Origin: a virus
Virus record (IMG/VR): IMGVR_UViG_3300024999_000044
Coordinates: 64,001 to 128,000 of that record
Direction: 5' to 3' (one strand)
DNA length: 64,000 nt
A program made the position numbers and the translations under genes. The notes under the pieces were generated by a model. That model had not been told where the DNA came from and did no database searches. It saw nothing but the letters and a program-made list of their open reading frames with translations. This document shows positions 14,433 to 61,984 of this stretch, one piece after another. How positions within the stretch are numbered: position 1 is the stretch's first letter; every line of letters starts with the position of its first letter.

Positions 14433-15197
14433 ATGGAGGTGAATATCTTGTATGACGATATGTTTAGATTCCACCTAGATGCAGATGTAGAGAAGTCAAG
14501 TGAACACGGAGAAGAAATACGTCTTATCAAAGGATATGCCTCTACTCCTGAGGAGGATAGACAAGGTGAGACTATGATGCATAAAGGATTGGATATTACT
14601 AATTTTTTGAACCATGGATTTTTTAACTACGATCATGATAATAGCCAGATATTGGGATACCCACTACCACCAACGCGTGTAGATGAGATAGGCATGTATG
14701 TGGAAGGAACCCTGTTAAAAGGGGTTGAGATGGCAGACCGCATGTGGAATTTAGCCCTCTCCCTAAGAAAATCCAGGGCACCTAGAAATGTAGGGTTCTC
14801 TGTAGAAGGGAAGATTATACAAAGGGAAGGTACTAGAATCTTAAAAGCTAAAATATACAATGTAGCTATAACCACTAATCCAGTTAACACTAACTGTACT
14901 TGGGATGCTATAGTGAAATCTTTTCAAGGTGACTATAATCTTGATAAGTCCCTAGATGCAGGGCATGCAATCAACCCCTTAGAAATGGATGGTGGTAGTG
15001 TCTTTCGTGAGGAAGACTTAGAGAAACAACTTCATAATTTATCATATGTGATAGGTGATGAGGCAAACAAGAAAATTCTTAAACAGAAGCTCTCAACTAA
15101 AAAGTCCTTTACAAAATCCGAGCTGGTGCTATACCTCCAGCTAACTAAAGGTTGGTCTTACGGCAAGTGTATGAACTTTGCTAACACTATTAACTAG
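14433..15197 (+). CDS. prohead maturation protease (HK97/U35-like)
   Basis: 'IKGYASTPEEDRQGETM' motif and gene order portal-protease-scaffold-capsid. Confidence 0.65.
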   Translation: MEVNILYDDMFRFHLDADVEKSSEHGEEIRLIKGYASTPEEDRQGETMMHKGLDITNFLNHGFFNYDHDNSQILGYPLPPTRVDEIGMYVEGTLLKGVEMADRMWNLALSLRKSRAPRNVGFSVEGKIIQREGTRILKAKIYNVAITTNPVNTNCTWDAIVKSFQGDYNLDKSLDAGHAINPLEMDGGSVFREEDLEKQLHNLSYVIGDEANKKILKQKLSTKKSFTKSELVLYLQLTKGWSYGKCMNFANTIN

Positions 15198-20462: not shown

Positions 20463-22163
20463 ATGCCTATCAATGACTACGGTGTAATATTTAATGGACG
20501 CAGGATAGTTCATCCCGGAGCATATGATGCTATAGATACTAGTAAGCTACCCATAACAACTTTAGGAAGTACCAACAGGCCAATATATCTGGGTGAATCA
20601 GATTCTGGAGCACCGGGTGTAGTAAAATGGTTCTCTTCAGCCCCTGATGCTAGAAAATACCTGAGGGGTGGGGAATTGTATGATATGTTAGATCTAGTGT
20701 TTTCCCCCTCACCAGAAGGTGGTGGTGGAGCTAGCCTTGTGGGAGTGCTGCCCACAAATGCTCTCCTAAAATCAAGTGCAATAGCTGGCGGTATGACCCT
20801 GAATTCTATTGAGTATGGTACCGGCGGTAACAGGATAACTGCTAGACTCGAAAATGGCACAATTACGGGAAGTAAGCTATTTACTATTTCCCGTTGGGAT
20901 CTAGGCATCACTGAGATATTTGATAATCTTGGGGCAATGATGTCAATACAGTATATGGGAACAGATGCCTATGCAGCAATTACTGTAGCTGTTGATGCTT
21001 CTTCTAAGAAAGCCATTTCCCTAGTTATTAAGAGCGGGCTAGACGCTGGATCTGCTACTGTAGATGTTACTGTTGACTTGACTGATTCTCAATATGCCAC
21101 CATTACTCAATTGGCTAAGTATTTGTCATCTATAGATGGATACAAAGTGGTATATTCCGACAACTCATTGCCTTCTAGCTCTTTAGATCCAGTTGTGGCA
21201 GCAGATATTAAAACATCCCCATATAACATTCTGGCTGTGTCCCAAGATATACCTAATCAGATCAACAAAGTCTCTTCCTTGATCAATATACCAGTAGTTG
21301 CTTCTGGTACTTCTATAGTTAATTTTGCTAACACTACTTTAACTGGGGGGGCAACAGGCTCTTCACCATCTAGCTGGTCCACCTATTTTGATTCCCTGTC
21401 TAAGGAGACCTCTGATATATTATGTGTTTTATCCTCCTCAAACACCATACACGCTGAAGCGGAATCTCATGTAGAGTACATGTCTACTATAGGGCAAAGG
21501 AGAATAGCATTTGTTGGCGGAGCCTTGGATGAGACAGTAGATGAAACTAAGCTAAGGGCATCATTCCTTAACAGTTCTAGGGTGGTCCTAGCATATCCAG
21601 GCATATACATCAAAGACCCCACCTCAGAAATTACAAAGTTGGTGCCATCTTATTTTACTGCTGCTATGCTAGCCGGACGTGCTTCCGGGGTAGACCCATC
21701 AGAGCCGTTAACCTTTGATTACTTTAATCTTATTGCTCTAGAAAAAGACTTAATGGCAGGGGACCCTGACATAGATGACCTTATAACTTCCGGGGTAGCA
21801 ACACTTGAAAAAGTGTATGGTGGGGGCATAAGATTAGCCCAATCCGTTACCACCGATCTTAAAATCGGATCTCCCTTCAGGGAGTTGTCACTCAGGCGTG
21901 GATCTGATGCCCTATCCGGTAAAGTTACTCAATCTTTAGAAGCTACTTTTGTAGGCCGTAAGGGTACACCAGTAAATGTAACCACTGTTGCCCTAGCTGC
22001 AAAAAGTATATTAACAGCAGCAGTAGCTAACGAAGAAATAGCAGCCTTTAGAAACATCGTGGTTACCTTCGCTGGGTCCATCATCAGAGTGGATTATGAT
22101 GTAGCCTATCTTGATCCCATAAACTTCATACTCATAACTTCACATTTCGTCACTGACATCTAA
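20463..22163 (+). CDS. tail sheath protein
   Basis: 566 aa; N-terminal 'RRIVHPGAYDAIDTS' sheath-like start; immediately followed by a 147-aa tube-size ORF. Confidence 0.65.
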   Translation: MPINDYGVIFNGRRIVHPGAYDAIDTSKLPITTLGSTNRPIYLGESDSGAPGVVKWFSSAPDARKYLRGGELYDMLDLVFSPSPEGGGGASLVGVLPTNALLKSSAIAGGMTLNSIEYGTGGNRITARLENGTITGSKLFTISRWDLGITEIFDNLGAMMSIQYMGTDAYAAITVAVDASSKKAISLVIKSGLDAGSATVDVTVDLTDSQYATITQLAKYLSSIDGYKVVYSDNSLPSSSLDPVVAADIKTSPYNILAVSQDIPNQINKVSSLINIPVVASGTSIVNFANTTLTGGATGSSPSSWSTYFDSLSKETSDILCVLSSSNTIHAEAESHVEYMSTIGQRRIAFVGGALDETVDETKLRASFLNSSRVVLAYPGIYIKDPTSEITKLVPSYFTAAMLAGRASGVDPSEPLTFDYFNLIALEKDLMAGDPDIDDLITSGVATLEKVYGGGIRLAQSVTTDLKIGSPFRELSLRRGSDALSGKVTQSLEATFVGRKGTPVNVTTVALAAKSILTAAVANEEIAAFRNIVVTFAGSIIRVDYDVAYLDPINFILITSHFVTDI

Positions 22164-22185: not shown

Positions 22186-22629
22186 ATGACAATGGAATCT
22201 AAGCAAACAGTCCACTCAGGCCACTCCATACAAATACAAATTGGTACAGTAGTGGTGGGTAAAGCACAAGGGTTAGAGGGAGAGCGTTCCTTTGGCACAG
22301 AAGGGGTATACGAAATTGGTAGCATAATGCCAGTGGAGCATGTTAACAACAGATATGAGGGCTCTCTTACTTTAGAGAGATTCTTTGTTCGTACGTCTAG
22401 TGTTTCAAAGGGTGACCTAGCTAAAGCCGGGTTTGCCTCCTTAGGGGAGGAAGTATTAAAAAAGGATGTTATAACTATCGCGGTTTATGATAAGACTGTT
22501 GACCCCCCTACCCTCATCCGTTCTTATGAGGGCTGCACTATTGTAAATTACCGTGAGACTTTCCGTGTAAATGCCATCGCTGGAGAAAACGCCACTTTCA
22601 CCTACCTCAAGGCTAGCAACAAGATCTAA
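22186..22629 (+). CDS. tail tube protein
   Basis: 147 aa directly after the sheath gene; strong terminator downstream. Confidence 0.6.
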   Translation: MTMESKQTVHSGHSIQIQIGTVVVGKAQGLEGERSFGTEGVYEIGSIMPVEHVNNRYEGSLTLERFFVRTSSVSKGDLAKAGFASLGEEVLKKDVITIAVYDKTVDPPTLIRSYEGCTIVNYRETFRVNAIAGENATFTYLKASNKI

Positions 22630-22651: not shown

Positions 22652-22697
22652 GAGACACAAGTATTTTAAAACATACCTGTGTCTCCATTTTATTTAA
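22652..22697 (+). terminator. Rho-independent terminator after the tube gene
   Basis: gagacaca...tgtgtctc stem followed by cattttattt. Confidence 0.6.
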
Positions 22698-22724
22698 TGA
22701 CCATTAATAAGAGGGGGAATATCG

Positions 22725-23144
22725 ATGACAGTAGTTCAACCAGATGTCTTAAGGACTTTACGTTCCAACACCCTACAAAAAGTGAACCAGGGTAAGGGAC
22801 GCACACATTCTATAAATGTTGATTACAGTGATATAAATGAAAGATTTGTAGGTAGATTCGTAGTACACCATCCCTCACAAATGGAAGTACTCCAGATAGG
22901 AACTCTAAAATCAGCTTTGCTGGGCGGTAATTTGAGTGTGGATGTACTAACAGACAATATAGCTACTGTTATATCTACCTTAGACGTAGTGCTAAGTGAG
23001 TTTCCAGAGTGGTTTGATGTGTTTGACCCAGATGTGGAGTACGAAATCATGGAAGATGTCTTCCTGCAGTATTTGTCCTGGAGGGATTCTTTTCGTAGAA
23101 GACCTACAGACAGCGAACCTCCAGGAAATAGCGAAAACAAATGA
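22725..23144 (+). CDS. tail assembly chaperone (short form)
   Basis: 139 aa, immediately upstream of the tape measure; overlaps an out-of-frame ORF, as in G/GT-type chaperone pairs. Confidence 0.55.
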   Translation: MTVVQPDVLRTLRSNTLQKVNQGKGRTHSINVDYSDINERFVGRFVVHHPSQMEVLQIGTLKSALLGGNLSVDVLTDNIATVISTLDVVLSEFPEWFDVFDPDVEYEIMEDVFLQYLSWRDSFRRRPTDSEPPGNSENK

Positions 23145-23466
23145 TGCTAGATTTCAATGGTGGGTACAGAAGACTTTTAAGGTTCTTCCCACAGATACTA
23201 AATACATGGATTTAACTAACGAACAACTGGACTTAATGTTCATTCACTATCTCATAGACACGGATAGATTAGATGCCGAGGATACAACCCCGTCACAGGA
23301 CTCCGAGTCATACCACGATCCAGATTTTATGGATGAATGGAACGAGATGTCCTCAGAAGGTTGTAAGGAAATGGATGCAAATTCTGTACCTCAAATCTTT
23401 GACGAGAGTGAAGAGGTGTTAATCCCAGAGAAATGCAGGGGTATCTCAGATTGGGAGGAGGTATAG
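22725..23466 (+). CDS. predicted +1 frameshift fusion product of the tail assembly chaperone (long form)
   Basis: ORF 22996-23466 is in the +1 frame relative to 22725-23144; a shift at aaa_tga_t (23139-23145) joins ...NSENK to DARFQWWVQKTF... Confidence 0.4.
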
Positions 23467-23470
23467 TACA

Positions 23471-26011
23471 ATGGCAACACCACCAAAAAAGGCAAAAACC
23501 CAATATCAAGTTGATGTTATGGTTGAAACTGCTCAAGCCAAAGATAAACTCAGAGAACTAGAGACCTTATTAAGGTCTGTTAAGAGATTAGCCTCACAGG
23601 CAGAACATGTTCAAAAAGGCTTTATGTCTTCAAAACAGATGAAGTATGCTAGTGGCCTTAAGTCCCAGTCTGAGAGTGCTATGTCTTACCTCCAGTCTAA
23701 AAAGTCTGGATTGGATGCAGTTGTCTCCAAGGCTCAAACAGCCTATATGGATTACACTGGAACAGATACTAAAAAGGAAAACAAATTAAAATACGCATAC
23801 ACTCAGGCTAAGGCTAGAAGTGACAACCTCAACAACCTTCTACAACAAGCTAGAGCATCTCAGACTATGGCCAGCCAATATCATAGTCAGATAGGAGAAA
23901 TGAGGGAATCTGATCTTTTAGCTAAAGGGGACAAGGCGTTAAACCCCTTATCTCGTTTGTTGCCATTTGGGGGAATACATGGAGCAGGACAATACATAGA
24001 TTCCTCTGTAACTTCTCAACGTCAAAGGCAATCCCAAGCTGCTAGGTATGGGATGAAGATGGGATCTTACGGTAACAATTTTTCTGGTATAAATGGTGGT
24101 ACCCTTGAAGACTTACAAGATGTGGGTATAAAAAATGGATATACAAGTCAACAGACCCTAGACACTGCCAGCACATTACTGTCTCTCCAGGGCACCTCAG
24201 GCGATAAGAACAAAATTAACCAAGACATAACCTATGGACAACAATTTGGTAGAATACATGGGGTTGATCCTAACCTCATTGCTGGTGCTGGCGGCATACT
24301 CTCCCAAATAGGAGCTGTAAAAGAAGGGGATCAACGCAGGTTTGCTGACTTACTGGCAGGGTCCATAAAGAAAACTAATATGAGGGGGCGTGAGGAAGAA
24401 CTTATACGCTCTACTGTTGCCTTAGTCCAACAAGTAGGTAATTCTATGACACAGATGTCCACTGATCAGCTGGGTTCTGTAGTAGGTGCCCAAACTATAC
24501 TTGGTCAGGGTAATCCTACTCTGAAGGGGGAGAGGGGTGCATCATTACTCTCCAGCATGGATGCCGGCATAAAAAGCAGTGATAACCTTGGTAATCTGTT
24601 AATGGGACTTGGTACTAATAAAAGATGGCAGGGCATTTCTGGGTACCAAGACCTACAGATACAAAGACAAAAAGGTTTAGCTGATCCACAAAATCTAAAG
24701 GACATGCTATCAGGTGCTAGGAGGATACAGGGCGGGGCTTCACCTGGGGACACTTTAGCAAACCAAGAAATGGTTATAGCCCAGCAATTTGGTTGGACTG
24801 ACAAGATGGAGACTGTCCAGACATTAAACAGGAATGGTACTCTAGACAAAATAAGCAACATGAAGGGTAAAGAATACTCGGATGCCCTCGTGACCTATGG
24901 GTTATCGTCAGAGGAAGAAGCAAAAAAACTATATGATTCGTCCACATCTGGTAAGCAAGCTGTTGCTGATGCCTATAAAGAAGAAAGGGCAAATACTATG
25001 GGAACATGGGCGGGTAATATAGGTACCAATGTGATGACCCAATTTAATAGATTACCTGCCACTTTACAATTAGGTGGAATGTTTGCTGCTGGTATAGGAG
25101 GTGGCACAGCACTACGAAGTGCTAGTGGTAGCTTATTAAGAAATATTGGTGGAAATATACCACCAGGTCCAGGAGGCATAGGGGCTGGCCTGTCTAGATG
25201 GGCACGTACAGCCCCTACAGCAGGTTCCGGGATAGATATATTAAACAGCTCCAACTATAATGGTACGCCTCAACCCATTTCTGGAGCCAGAAACATAGCT
25301 AAAAACGTGCTAACTAAACTAGGTCCAGAAACAGGTGGATGGAAAAATATTCCTGAAACAATACTAGGCAACTCAAAGTCCCTCCTCTCCTCTGGTTCTA
25401 GTGGATTAAAGGCATTAGGTAAGACAGCTTTAAAACCTATACCCCTTGTTGGGACTACCGTGGGAGTGGGATTAGACATGGCTAGCGGTAATAGCTTTGG
25501 TAAATCCTTATTTAAGGGGGCGGGTAGTCTCATTGGAGGTGCCCTGGGTATGGGGGCTGCCGGACTAGCAGGAATTAGTACTGGTGGGGTCGGCTTATTA
25601 GCTTCTGGGGCCTTGGTAGGTGGGGGATCTATGGCTGGTGCTTTAGGAGCTGGTAAGCTGTGGGATAAACTGCATGGTAAAAAGACTCCAGACACTAGTT
25701 CTTACACTGGTAGTTCAATTGACACTTCTACTGCTGATGTTCAGACACTAAACGCCAGGACTATCAATATACAGTCTCAGGTTAAGGATATGAATTCTAG
25801 TGCCATCTCTTCTAAGAATTATAATGAAAAGGTTGGGTCTACTCCAACTCCCGATGCCACGATACAACACAGCATAAATATCTCAGGTAAAGTGGAAGGG
25901 ATGACTGTTGATAATCAGTCAAAAGTCTCCAATGGCATAGTTGACTATATATCTGGATTTAACTCCTCAAGAGGTGGATATGGTCTTTCAACAGTTAAAA
26001 CCTTGAGATAA
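23471..26011 (+). CDS. tail tape measure protein
   Basis: 846 aa; coiled-coil N-terminal region, Gly/Ala-rich hydrophobic segment 'GGALGMGAAGLAGISTGGVGLLASGALVGGGSMAGALGAG'; position after the chaperone pair. Confidence 0.7.
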   Translation: MATPPKKAKTQYQVDVMVETAQAKDKLRELETLLRSVKRLASQAEHVQKGFMSSKQMKYASGLKSQSESAMSYLQSKKSGLDAVVSKAQTAYMDYTGTDTKKENKLKYAYTQAKARSDNLNNLLQQARASQTMASQYHSQIGEMRESDLLAKGDKALNPLSRLLPFGGIHGAGQYIDSSVTSQRQRQSQAARYGMKMGSYGNNFSGINGGTLEDLQDVGIKNGYTSQQTLDTASTLLSLQGTSGDKNKINQDITYGQQFGRIHGVDPNLIAGAGGILSQIGAVKEGDQRRFADLLAGSIKKTNMRGREEELIRSTVALVQQVGNSMTQMSTDQLGSVVGAQTILGQGNPTLKGERGASLLSSMDAGIKSSDNLGNLLMGLGTNKRWQGISGYQDLQIQRQKGLADPQNLKDMLSGARRIQGGASPGDTLANQEMVIAQQFGWTDKMETVQTLNRNGTLDKISNMKGKEYSDALVTYGLSSEEEAKKLYDSSTSGKQAVADAYKEERANTMGTWAGNIGTNVMTQFNRLPATLQLGGMFAAGIGGGTALRSASGSLLRNIGGNIPPGPGGIGAGLSRWARTAPTAGSGIDILNSSNYNGTPQPISGARNIAKNVLTKLGPETGGWKNIPETILGNSKSLLSSGSSGLKALGKTALKPIPLVGTTVGVGLDMASGNSFGKSLFKGAGSLIGGALGMGAAGLAGISTGGVGLLASGALVGGGSMAGALGAGKLWDKLHGKKTPDTSSYTGSSIDTSTADVQTLNARTINIQSQVKDMNSSAISSKNYNEKVGSTPTPDATIQHSINISGKVEGMTVDNQSKVSNGIVDYISGFNSSRGGYGLSTVKTLR

Positions 26012-59080: not shown

Positions 59081-61984
59081 TCATCCTTCCGTTAGACCTA
59101 GCTCTTCTAGATGAAGGAGCATATCCTCATCTATGTTTACACTACGATTCATATGATCCGCTACATCATCCAATAGCCTATTTTTCTGTCTACGAAGTAC
59201 CCTTTTCGTATCCTCCGGTTCATCAGATGTGGTAAGACATTTTCTCTTCAGCTCCCCTTCCCCTTTAGTAGTGGTTACTTCGCTCAGGTCATCTACACTT
59301 ATCTGGATGTTGCTGCCTCTAGAATATATGTCTTGCTTTACAATCTCTTTGTCTTCCCCGAAATCTTCTGCACATTTCGTATATAGGTCCATATTGTCAT
59401 ACTTAGGTAACCTACTTTCTGGGTCTAGGATTGCCTTAGCCATAAATGAAGGAGTACTTTGACCCGTAGAGCCATACATCTTTAATCTAATTATGGCATG
59501 CCATTGTGGCATACCTTTAGCCACATCTTTAACTTTGAATTCTGGCTCAACTACACTCTTTAGCTCATCTAGATTATCCTCGTCAGTCTGAAAAATCATG
59601 TAATGTGGCCCTGCTTGCCTCATAATCTCTGGTAGGTTCTTATCGGTTTTCTTTAATTGGGACCACCCATGAAACATAAATACTAATCCACATCTATACT
59701 TTCTATATCTGGTCAACATCTGTTGCCATCTTTCACTACCTTTTATGTAATGGTCTGGTTCATCTAACATTAAAAAGCATGGTGGTCTATCATCTTCTTC
59801 ATCAATATCTTTTCTGCTAATCATGGCAAGGTTGAACTTAGCCATGATAAAGGAGATAAGAGCAGTAACAATAGGTTCCCCTAAATCTTCATCAGCATAG
59901 ACAAGAACCATATCACCCTCATCCATCCATTTCCTAAAATCTACTAGATAGTTGCCTTCCAAGTCTTTTTTAGGCCTCTGTAGAAGTATATTTTTCACTG
60001 CACTCTTACGTGTAATCTTGTACAACCTACGAAAAGTTTGGTCACATATGGAGGAACGCTCTTCCTTGGTGTAGTCATTGTGATATCTCTCCCAGTCAGA
60101 GCGTAACTCAAAATCAGTAATGCTGGAAATTATGTTTGCCCTATAATCAGGGTCACTCATCATTCTCATAACATCTTGTATGGTCGCATCTGGGGTGGTC
60201 CAAACAGCTTTAACAGCTAATTGAACCCAAGTCTCTGAAGTCATACTAAGAGCATTTCCAGCCACTAGTTCTATAAAATGTATTACTTCCTCAGCAAGAT
60301 TATCCTGTATATCTTCAGCCTCTTTGCCTCTAAATATTTCATTCCAGCCTATGCCAATTGGCCTCCTGGTGTTAGAAAAATCAATGATCTTAACCTTGTG
60401 CCTAAGCTCAGGAGGTACCCTTTTTAGTATTCTACGTAGTGCCTTACCATCTGCTGCATCAATGTACATAACACCATAGCCTCTAAAGAACGATTCTAAG
60501 GCAAAATTAATACCAGCGGTAGTTTTACCCGTTCCAGGCTCTCCCATAATAACTCTAGTCATACATAGATGGTTCTTATTTTTGGTGGAGTAATGAAGGG
60601 TTTTTATGATGCCATCCGTGTCTTCAATAGTGGCAAATGGTATGTTTTTACCATTCCCATCTTCAAAAGTTTCCTTAGGTACTTCAGATTCCCCTTTGTT
60701 GGTTACTAGGCTTAACTCATTGTAGTGATCTATTTGAGCCTTTTGGTCTGGCACATTGATGATCTTAGCTAATTCATTAGAGCACAGTACATCATGAACA
60801 GTATTGGGCATTATTCGGTTAATGACTGAATGTATCCTATTAGACTTTCTTTTTTCACTTTGCGTAGAAGATTCTACTAACTTGTTATCTCCCTCAAGGG
60901 GGTCAAATCCAGAGGTGATGGAACGTATAACTGCTTTTCTCCTCTCAGAATCTGGGCATTGAACAGATACACTTATGTTAGTGTCAAAAGCATCAGATTT
61001 GGCTTTAAATCGGGTGGAATTGGATTCTATACTCCCATTAAGGAATTTTTTGTTACCACCGAGGTTATCCGATTCCTCCCATTCAGGTATAAATGAGTTG
61101 CCAAACATATTAAGACCACCCTCTACAGCCAAACCTGCAAGCCATCCACCAGTTAGAGCTATTTTTTTAGCAGATGGTTTTTCACCTTTCTTTCTAGGCA
61201 CTTCACTAGTTTGCTTATGGGTATCTAGTAGTGACATCATAGAGTCATTCCACTCACTACCTTTCGGCCTTAGGCCGATTTGTAGAAGGGCTACATCCCC
61301 TTCTTTTAAATAATGCTTTGCATTTAAGATAGACTCTAGTATGGAGAAGTGCGGGTTATCCACATCCAAGGATAATAACTGGTGGTATTTCAGGTGTAGT
61401 TTTGTGACATCGGTAATGTTACTCCCAAATTGAGGCATAGGATCTTTTACCACCTTAACGTTAGACTGCTTCCAACATTTCATTACCTGCCGTGCTAACC
61501 CTTCTTTTATTCCTTCCTTGTCAGGTACTGTTAGGTAGAAACCAATTTGGTTGTGTTTGATTATAACCTCCCACCATACCACCATTTCCTGATCATAGGT
61601 CATAAAGTATTCCTCTGAGTCTAAGTTTATACGCGATGTCAGAGGTCTGTACAGCCTAGAGAATTCAGACATTAACCATTTTACATTCATATTGCTTGTC
61701 ATCTTGCTTGGGGAAATCTCCAGTGATGCATAATTTAAATCATTTTTCTTAATAGCCTTATCCCTAAGATTGCTGATACTTAATGTGACCTCTGAGAGGT
61801 CCGGCACATCTTCTTCATCGACTTTAACTCTATCTTCTCCCACATACAAGGGGTTTATCTTTTGTAAAAATGACCTAATAATGCCTTGCCCTTTAACCTC
61901 TTTAGAGTCAGAATCAACCCTAGGAATTATTCTAGGGTTGATAATAGTTTTTCCAATCCTCACAATTGGTGGAGTGTTTAACAT
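59081..61984 (-). CDS. 967-aa FtsK/HerA/VirB4-superfamily P-loop ATPase with approx. 450-aa N-terminal domain of unknown function
   Basis: Walker A 'GEPGTGKTT', Walker B 'CFLMLDEPDHY', 'YRKYRCGLVFMFHGWSQL' resembling the RK.G...TQ block of FtsK/HerA/VirB4 ATPases; ATPase in the C-terminal half as in VirB4/TcpF. Confidence 0.5.
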   Translation of the reverse strand: MLNTPPIVRIGKTIINPRIIPRVDSDSKEVKGQGIIRSFLQKINPLYVGEDRVKVDEEDVPDLSEVTLSISNLRDKAIKKNDLNYASLEISPSKMTSNMNVKWLMSEFSRLYRPLTSRINLDSEEYFMTYDQEMVVWWEVIIKHNQIGFYLTVPDKEGIKEGLARQVMKCWKQSNVKVVKDPMPQFGSNITDVTKLHLKYHQLLSLDVDNPHFSILESILNAKHYLKEGDVALLQIGLRPKGSEWNDSMMSLLDTHKQTSEVPRKKGEKPSAKKIALTGGWLAGLAVEGGLNMFGNSFIPEWEESDNLGGNKKFLNGSIESNSTRFKAKSDAFDTNISVSVQCPDSERRKAVIRSITSGFDPLEGDNKLVESSTQSEKRKSNRIHSVINRIMPNTVHDVLCSNELAKIINVPDQKAQIDHYNELSLVTNKGESEVPKETFEDGNGKNIPFATIEDTDGIIKTLHYSTKNKNHLCMTRVIMGEPGTGKTTAGINFALESFFRGYGVMYIDAADGKALRRILKRVPPELRHKVKIIDFSNTRRPIGIGWNEIFRGKEAEDIQDNLAEEVIHFIELVAGNALSMTSETWVQLAVKAVWTTPDATIQDVMRMMSDPDYRANIISSITDFELRSDWERYHNDYTKEERSSICDQTFRRLYKITRKSAVKNILLQRPKKDLEGNYLVDFRKWMDEGDMVLVYADEDLGEPIVTALISFIMAKFNLAMISRKDIDEEDDRPPCFLMLDEPDHYIKGSERWQQMLTRYRKYRCGLVFMFHGWSQLKKTDKNLPEIMRQAGPHYMIFQTDEDNLDELKSVVEPEFKVKDVAKGMPQWHAIIRLKMYGSTGQSTPSFMAKAILDPESRLPKYDNMDLYTKCAEDFGEDKEIVKQDIYSRGSNIQISVDDLSEVTTTKGEGELKRKCLTTSDEPEDTKRVLRRQKNRLLDDVADHMNRSVNIDEDMLLHLEELGLTEG

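Follow-up and report, generated by a model that had tools for sequence, protein, structure and literature searches.

A conserved UUU_CGU site as the probable point of a +1 ribosomal frameshift in the tail assembly chaperone pair of a Herelleviridae-type phage

Described +1 frameshifts and the chaperone pair of the window

Frameshifting in the genes of tail assembly chaperones has been described for several phages, and the present analysis concerns one such gene pair, two overlapping open reading frames (ORFs) ahead of a tape measure-type gene in a 64,000-nucleotide (nt) stretch of the viral record IMGVR_UViG_3300024999_000044 (record positions 64,001-128,000), hereafter referred to as the window, to which all coordinates refer. 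In phage lambda, gpG and gpGT are related by a -1 tandem slip on a heptamer, the chaperone frameshift of the G/GT type for which Xu, Hendrix and Duda (2004) are cited. For the SPO1-like phages a +1 shift is on record. The SPO1 RefSeq record attaches the remark 'ribosomal slippage' to gp11.1, said to be made only as the C-terminal half of a joint gp10.2-gp11.1 product that results from a +1 event; the Adastra record refers to a '+1 frameshift product' and the Moonbeam paper to an 'unusual +1 frameshift'. The pairs of Shanette, TsarBomba, Troll, SPO1 and Adastra have been deposited as joined coding sequences, with '+1' made explicit for SPO1 and Adastra only, and the deposited Troll protein (YP_008430876.1) carries exactly the junction of a Phe residue with the +1 frame. 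Elsewhere the downstream ORF is called as a separate gene, as in EalM-132, Goe16, Nachito, SP-10, BigBertha, phage 812, LP-125, LpeD and Riverwalk, and it was likewise treated as a separate gene of unknown function in a multi-omics study of a Listeria phage published in 2025.

Outside the Herelleviridae, bacterial ribosomes are described as particularly liable to shift +1 at UUU_Ynn, and the PA-X cassette of influenza A is given, at its minimum, as UCC_UUU_CGU (Atkins et al. 2016, PMC5009743). The PA-X junction, GLWDSF/VSPR, was established by mass spectrometry, and a P-site slip on UUU_C together with an effect of the UCC codon in the E site has been argued (Firth et al. 2012, PMC3498833). 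A +1 shift in the tail chaperone of the HF1 group of haloarchaeal myoviruses has been proposed at TTT-CGC (Dyall-Smith et al. 2020, PMC7230728). The +1 chaperone shift itself is not new, having already been annotated or reported in SPO1, Adastra, Troll and Moonbeam. What is added here is a corrected shift site and a family-wide comparison placing it at UUU_C followed by GN; no description of such a family-wide site for the Herelleviridae was found in the literature searched.

In the window, ORF1 runs from the ATG at 22725 to the TGA at 23142-23144 (139 amino acids, aa) and is overlapped over 22996-23144 by an ORF of the +1 frame, which is open from 22996 (a TAA lies at 22993) to the TAG at 23464-23466. 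ORF1 matches phrog_25000 (E = 8.5e-43) and phrog_1038 (E = 4e-24), both labelled tail assembly chaperone, and the two ORF halves match one and the same 230-position family, phrog_25000, the N-terminal part aligning with profile positions 6-121 at the E-value given above and the C-terminal part with positions 135-213 (1.6e-18). The pair is flanked by the tail tube gene and the tape measure-type gene, which is the position characteristic of G/GT-type chaperones. In tblastn searches the chaperones of SPO1, Shanette and CP-51 were 39-48% identical to those of the window, and the pair was recovered, in two pieces each time, from 62 records of Bacillus, Lysinibacillus and Exiguobacterium phages. Homology thus identifies the two ORFs as the paired tail assembly chaperone genes of a myovirus of the SPO1 type (Herelleviridae). 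Pfam gave no match for the fusion, tube or tape measure protein, and a PDB sequence search returned nothing meaningful.

The initial annotation had recognised a chaperone pair preceding the tape measure gene and had placed ORF 22725-23144 under an overlapping +1-frame ORF, 22996-23466; the identity and the coordinates are both confirmed. Its further statement that the shift is +1 and not -1, and of a kind rarer than that of lambda G/GT and known in phages of Gram-positive hosts, also holds, since a TAG at 23129 interrupts the -1 frame and the precedents of SPO1, Adastra and Moonbeam are available. The position that it assigned to the shift is not supported and is discussed further below.

The features of the pair are as follows:
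22725..23144, + strand: ORF1, short tail assembly chaperone (gpG / SPO1 gp10.2 analogue), 139 aa by standard decoding, from the ORF list
23088..23096, + strand: proposed +1 shift cassette TCT_TTT_CGT (E, P and A codons), with the slippery tetranucleotide TTTC at 23091-23094
23095..23466, + strand: putative +1 segment of the long chaperone (gpT / SPO1 gp11.1 analogue), 123 codons and stop
23094..23144, + strand: 0-frame tail of the short product, RRRPTDSEPPGNSENK and stop, poorly conserved and of variable length

The UUU_CGN site and the frame under selection

The pair very probably undergoes a ribosomal +1 shift at a conserved UUU_CGU, 48 bases ahead of the stop codon of ORF1. Comparison was made over 32 loci: the window, 10 metagenomic relatives, 15 Spounavirinae/Bastillevirinae isolates and 6 loci from other subfamilies and genera (Staphylococcus phage 812, Listeria LP-125, Lactobacillus LpeD, Enterococcus Riverwalk, B. 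megaterium Eldridge and BSP38). These cover the Spounavirinae, Bastillevirinae, Twortvirinae, Jasinkavirinae, Brockvirinae, Elpedvirus and metagenomic relatives. The downstream ORF lies in the +1 frame in all 32, an arrangement that a canonical -1 slippery heptamer (X_XXY_YYZ) does not produce; the pair is a +1 variant of the tail chaperone frameshift kind and not of the lambda type. The two-ORF arrangement cannot be attributed to chance, because both halves match phrog_25000 and the same +1 layout recurs throughout these loci.

The motif W-x-x-[S/T]-F-R, encoded as TGG ... NCN TTT CGN, is common to the loci and marks the frame junction; in the window it reads TGG AGG GAT TCT TTT CGT (23079-23096). 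All 32 loci have TTT as the P codon, always at the same place in ORF1, and the base following it is invariably C. The A codon is CGN in 31 (CGT 17, CGC 8, CGA 5, CGG 1), and the E codon is [T/A]CN, specifying Ser or Thr, in 30 (TCC 15, ACC 8, TCT 3, ACG 2, TCG 1 and ACA 1, the remaining two being CGA 1 and AAC 1). Within an alignment of 22 Spounavirinae and metagenomic loci, the TGG, the TTT and the C after TTT show no variation. A UUU_C sequence that allows +1 re-pairing of tRNA-Phe is accordingly present in the window at 23091-23094, with the A-site CGT at 23094-23096. In the window TTT accounts for 72% of the Phe codons and CGN for only 29% of the Arg codons, and the adjacent Arg codons of the chaperone gene are AGA; the constancy of TTT_CGN is therefore not predicted by codon usage alone.

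The sole locus without CGN after TTT is that of Eldridge (L030, 5082-5093), which reads CGA TTT CAA TTC TGA and retains the C. This exception suggests that UUU_C may be the essential part of the site and CGN a replaceable enhancer.

Conservation in the region that follows the TTT belongs to the +1 frame. When anchored on the TTT, the +1 peptide aligns without gaps from its first codon across the family, with the pattern V-x-x-[LIV]-x-x-x-x-[LIM]-[KQR]-E-I-A-[KR]-T-x-x-A-R-F; VEDLQTANLQEIAKTN is the window's segment upstream of the stop. The 0-frame tail, on the other hand, is polar and varies from 2 to 35 codons in length among the relatives. In the 22-locus alignment, column entropy upstream of the TTT peaks at third positions of the 0 frame (1.44 vs 0.91 and 0.68), and downstream of it at third positions of the +1 frame (1.25 vs 0.94 and 0.71), so that the codon phase of variability switches directly after the TTT.

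The same pattern is observed between the window and its nearest relative (locus L016), which differ at 10 nt in the 16 codons ahead of the window's stop. Read in frame 0 these codons hold 0 synonymous and 9 non-synonymous changes, as against 6 and 2 in frame +1, whereas in the 16 codons upstream of the TTT the counts are 6 synonymous and 5 non-synonymous in frame 0 and 1 and 10 in frame +1. The substitution pattern thus indicates that selection between the TTT and the stop acts on the +1 frame. Joining the two parts at TTT_C also gives higher scores (235.5 bits with phrog_25000 and 51.4 with phrog_4988) than joining them at the stop (225.3 and 34.3 bits, respectively).

The extent of the overlap limits the position of the shift further. 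The +1 frame opens just 5 nt ahead of the TTT in 15 loci, and the 0-frame stop is the third codon after the TTT in 9. Both features coincide in TsarBomba, BigBertha, BCP78, Troll, phage 812, LP-125 and Riverwalk, where the frames overlap by 17 nt in the form N CN TTT CGN NNN TAR, and within these 17 nt the change from UUU to UUC is the only possible +1 re-pairing. On these sequence grounds, UUU_CGU is most likely the shift site, rather than the stop codon.

From this arrangement we infer both the ribosomal nature of the shift and its efficiency. The majority of the ribosomes would read 22725-23144 and yield the 139-aa chaperone. In a minority, the P-site peptidyl-tRNA-Phe would slip +1 from UUU (23091-23093) to UUC (23092-23094) while the A site awaits CGU, and the shifted ribosomes would read 23095-23466 to give a 246-aa protein. 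This predicted long product is to be annotated as join(22725..23093,23095..23466), and neither with a junction at the stop nor as two genes. Its N-terminal 123 residues would be common to the short form and its C-terminal 123 would come from the +1 frame, with the predicted junction ...YLSWRDSF/VEDLQTANLQEIAKTNDARFQWWVQ... (in shorter form ...WRDSF/VEDLQTANLQEIAKTNDARF... or ...SWRDSF/VEDLQTANLQEIAKTNDARFQWW...) and the predicted tryptic junction peptide DSFVEDLQTANLQEIAK. By analogy with lambda gpG/gpGT, both forms may coat the tape measure protein, and the extension may recruit tail tube subunits. For the family as a whole, UUU_C followed by GN would serve as a simple annotation rule.

Alternative explanations and points against the proposed site

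Were there no frameshift, the downstream ORF would have to be initiated internally, for example at the ATG at 23206 to give a product with the N-terminus MDLTNEQLDLMFIHY. Many deposited genomes do call two separate genes, and in several relatives an ATG is found 9 codons after the Phe codon. However, no start codon of the +1 frame is conserved, the first one after the TTT falling anywhere from codon 1 to codon 48 in the 32 loci. The first ATG, GTG or TTG after the TTT in the window is that at 23206, 38 codons downstream; no purine-rich Shine-Dalgarno (SD) sequence is present in the 15 nt ahead of it, and a start there would omit the best conserved 37 residues, including EIAKT..ARFxWWVQ. Starts upstream of the TTT are excluded in the 15 loci in which the +1 frame is closed 5 nt before it, and conservation of that frame begins at the first codon after the TTT. 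Internal initiation is thus considered improbable.

A shift at the last sense codon before the stop, as proposed in the initial annotation (aaa_tga_t, with the junction NSENK/DARF), appears more improbable still. It would take place at AAA_UGA_U (23139-23145) and give the product ...GNSENK/DARFQWW..., with the junction peptide RPTDSEPPGNSENKDAR. The reading on which it was based is correct, in that omission of the T at 23142 gives DARFQWWVQKTF and continues into the downstream ORF, and the aaa tga tgc context recurs in the nearest relative (L016). Nevertheless, the stop is not at a conserved position. It lies 3 to 36 codons after the TTT across the loci and is the 17th codon in the window, and in a relative of 72% identity (L017) the 0 frame extends 12 codons beyond the window's stop position. 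In Shanette, CP-51 and four metagenomic loci (L017, L018, L019 and L025) the 0 frame ends only after the conserved ARFxWW, and a shift at the stop would therefore delete this motif in those six loci. The 16 codons ahead of the stop evolve as +1 coding sequence, the codon phase has already switched at the TTT, and the gap-free conservation of VEDLQTANLQEIAKTN upstream of the stop is at odds with the junction NSENK/DARF. In addition, re-pairing of tRNA-Lys from AAA to AAU is poor, the agcgaaaac ahead of 23139 offers no SD-like element or match to the anti-SD sequence, and the fusion built at the stop has the lower scores with both families. At most, a shift at the stop would make a minor contribution alongside that at UUU_C.

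The same downstream frame would also result from a -2 ribosomal slip, which cannot be told from +1 by frame, or from slippage of RNA polymerase that deletes one U at the T run, the window sequence TCTTTTC having four T. Most relatives have only three T (CC TTT CG), whereas the runs at which transcriptional slippage is known to occur in bacteria are far longer. A -2 slip would leave tRNA-Phe, moved from UUU onto CCU or CUU, mismatched, and the influenza cassette gave the +1 peptide only and no -2 peptide (PMC3498833). Both are considered highly improbable.

A sequencing or assembly error, or a pseudogene in which one ORF is broken by an indel, is a general possibility in metagenomic assemblies only and can practically be dismissed here, because the identical 139-aa ORF1 protein occurs on 6 contigs (up to 141,863 bp) from three data sources (JGI, Logan and ENA), the +1 layout is shared by all 32 independent genomes, finished isolate genomes among them, and no in-frame fused homologue was found in two homology searches, the first returning short forms only and one separately called downstream ORF and the other, queried with the SPO1 fusion, four short forms but not a single annotated fusion. 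Faulty assembly is thus excluded as the source of the frame break, an alternative that the initial annotation had left standing.

Several points nevertheless weigh against a shift at UUU_CGU. The literature searched gave no experimental evidence for a chaperone fusion in any member of the Herelleviridae, the present phage included. A 3' stimulatory RNA structure was not found, either in the fold of the window (z = -0.46) or with RNAalifold on 15 loci, which gave no pairs, and the efficiency may be very low as no conserved stimulator was detected. CGU is the most used CGN codon of the window (103 of 719 Arg codons) and may not be slowly decoded in whatever host the phage has, which makes the 'hungry A site' a weak step of the mechanism. 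The E-site codon is UCU here and UCC in the influenza cassette. Three other in-frame TTT_CGN dicodons occur in the window genes, compared with 5.3 expected, so that the dicodon is not clearly avoided. Finally, in an exact look-up among deposited proteins, the junctions guessed for SPO1, Adastra and Shanette (the +1 frame entered after F or after FR) were absent, the Troll protein being the only match; the SPO1 fusion with a junction at the stop was also absent. Either these three records use other junctions or they lie outside the protein collection searched.

The other TTT_CGN dicodons are located at 15003 (GTC TTT CGT), 31391 (GGA TTT CGA) and 53888 (GGA TTT CGT), and none of them follows a Ser or Thr codon.

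Two elements upstream of the UUU were also noted. An SD-like GGAGGG (from TGG AGG GAT) is present at 23080-23085, 5 nt 5' of the UUU, and recalls the stimulator of prfB. It was rejected as a family feature because, apart from the window, only the two nearest relatives (L016 and L017) carry it, and it could be a local enhancer at most. The invariant Trp codon of the 22-locus alignment lies at 23079-23081, four codons 5' of the UUU. A rhizobial integrative and conjugative element has been described in which a conserved Trp codon lies equally far from a UUU +1 site, and an effect of the nascent peptide was suggested there (PMC5009743); such an effect at the present locus would be inseparable from conservation of the protein itself.

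Neighbouring features and comparison with known systems

The features that surround the chaperone pair are listed below, SD denoting Shine-Dalgarno sequences:
20463-22163: sheath gene (phrog_279)
22186..22629, + strand: tail tube gene, upstream of the pair (phrog_985, E = 8e-54)
22711..22717, + strand: SD-like GAGGGGG, 7 nt 5' of the ORF1 start codon, read from the sequence
23453-23461, + strand: SD of the tape measure gene, GGGAGGAGG, within the 3' end of the +1 ORF and 9 nt ahead of the ATG at 23471
23471..26011, + strand: tape measure / tail lysin-type gene, directly downstream of the pair (phrog_13572, E = 1e-89)

The tube protein was matched by tblastn in 758 phage records, the great majority from SPO1/Twort-type phages of Staphylococcus, Bacillus, Enterococcus, Listeria and Lactobacillus. 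The best isolate match shows 45-48% identity in the chaperone and 67% in the tube, and closer relatives (55-78% identity) are metagenomic only, including those from groundwater and sediment samples. These comparisons place the window phage in a divergent lineage of the Herelleviridae type, known from metagenomes only. One related contig has been deposited as a 'Bacteroidota bacterium' metagenome-assembled genome (GCA_030706425.1), which probably reflects the wrong binning of a contig that belongs to a phage. Nearly all long ORFs of the window lie on the + strand from 245 to ~58,200, followed by a 967-aa ORF on the - strand (59081-61984), and no tRNA genes or Rfam families were detected at threshold in the 64 kb.

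Between the tube and chaperone genes, a strong hairpin is present at 22652-22695, with stems at 22652-22664 and 22673-22685 followed by CAUUUUAUUU (folding energy -15.6 kcal/mol, z = -4.6 against shuffled sequences). It was missed by a simple terminator scan with a loop limit of 8, as the stems enclose 20 nt, made up of an 8-nt terminal loop and an inner stem. The hairpin looks like an intrinsic terminator or attenuator, which would lower transcription of the chaperone and tape measure genes relative to the sheath and tube genes. Terminators at the tube/chaperone position are reported in related phage records and in a transcriptome paper on a Listeria phage.

At the other end of the pair, GGGAGGAGG overlaps the +1 ORF codons for the C-terminal W-E-E-V (23453-23466). 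Members of the family share the ending [W/F]EEV, seen as KWEEV in SPO1, EFEEV in Shanette and DWEEV in the window, and the bases of this SD may be constrained both as protein and as ribosome binding site.

The downstream ORF frequently bears a label unrelated to tail assembly. The +1 part (23143-23463) matches phrog_1316, 'RNA polymerase beta subunit' (E = 5.7e-08), the same label is attached to the downstream ORF in LpeD and Riverwalk (loci L028, 1274-1744, and L029, 1754-2329), and the CampHawk RefSeq record names it 'RNA polymerase'. Judged by where the ORF lies and by its homology with the T-like chaperone part, the label looks like a propagated misannotation, and the present comparison explains such frequent mislabelling.

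Among the known systems, the closest are the Herelleviridae pairs SPO1 gp10.2/gp10.2-gp11.1, Troll gp92/93, Adastra 083/084 and Shanette gp103/104 (phrog_25000, phrog_4988). The window pair resembles them in the homology of both halves, in its position between the tube and tape measure genes, in the +1 frame and in the W-x-x-[S/T]-F-R encoded as NCN TTT CGN. It differs in its E codon, TCT in place of TCC, and in its 16-codon 0-frame tail after the site, whereas the Bastillevirinae, the Twortvirinae and others stop two codons after it. Compared with lambda, the shift proposed here is +1 and would be made by a single P-site slip on UUU_C, and no sequence similarity to lambda G/T is claimed.

The bacterial prfB (RF2) site, CUU_UGA_C, is likewise a +1 site with a P-site tRNA slip and has an SD-like element upstream, as the window does in GGAGGG. 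The shift in the window, however, is not placed at a stop codon, and the spacing of its SD-like element is 5 nt as compared with 3 nt in prfB.

With PA-X, the window shares the order Ser codon-UUU-CGU, the slip from UUU to UUC proposed for it and the lack of an evident 3' stimulatory structure. SPO1 and 14 other loci have exactly TCC TTT CGN, and the window has the synonymous TCT. The differences are that the translation system is bacterial, that CGU is not among the rarest codons here and that the phage site is read from sequence only. If confirmed experimentally, the chaperone pair would represent a natural bacterial example of a PA-X-type +1 cassette. The HF1 layout is the same as that of Troll and BigBertha, TTT CGC AGA TAA; the HF1 hosts are archaeal, and the likeness noted here concerns the layout. 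It may be, at about even odds, that [U/A]CN_UUU_CGN is an ancient, stimulator-free +1 signal, identical with the cassette demonstrated for influenza PA-X and with that proposed for HF1, and fixed in the chaperone gene of all the Herelleviridae lineages compared, namely phages of Bacillus, Staphylococcus, Listeria, Enterococcus and Lactobacillus and their uncultured relatives. A single signal of three codons would then be functional on the ribosomes of bacteria, archaea and eukaryotes.

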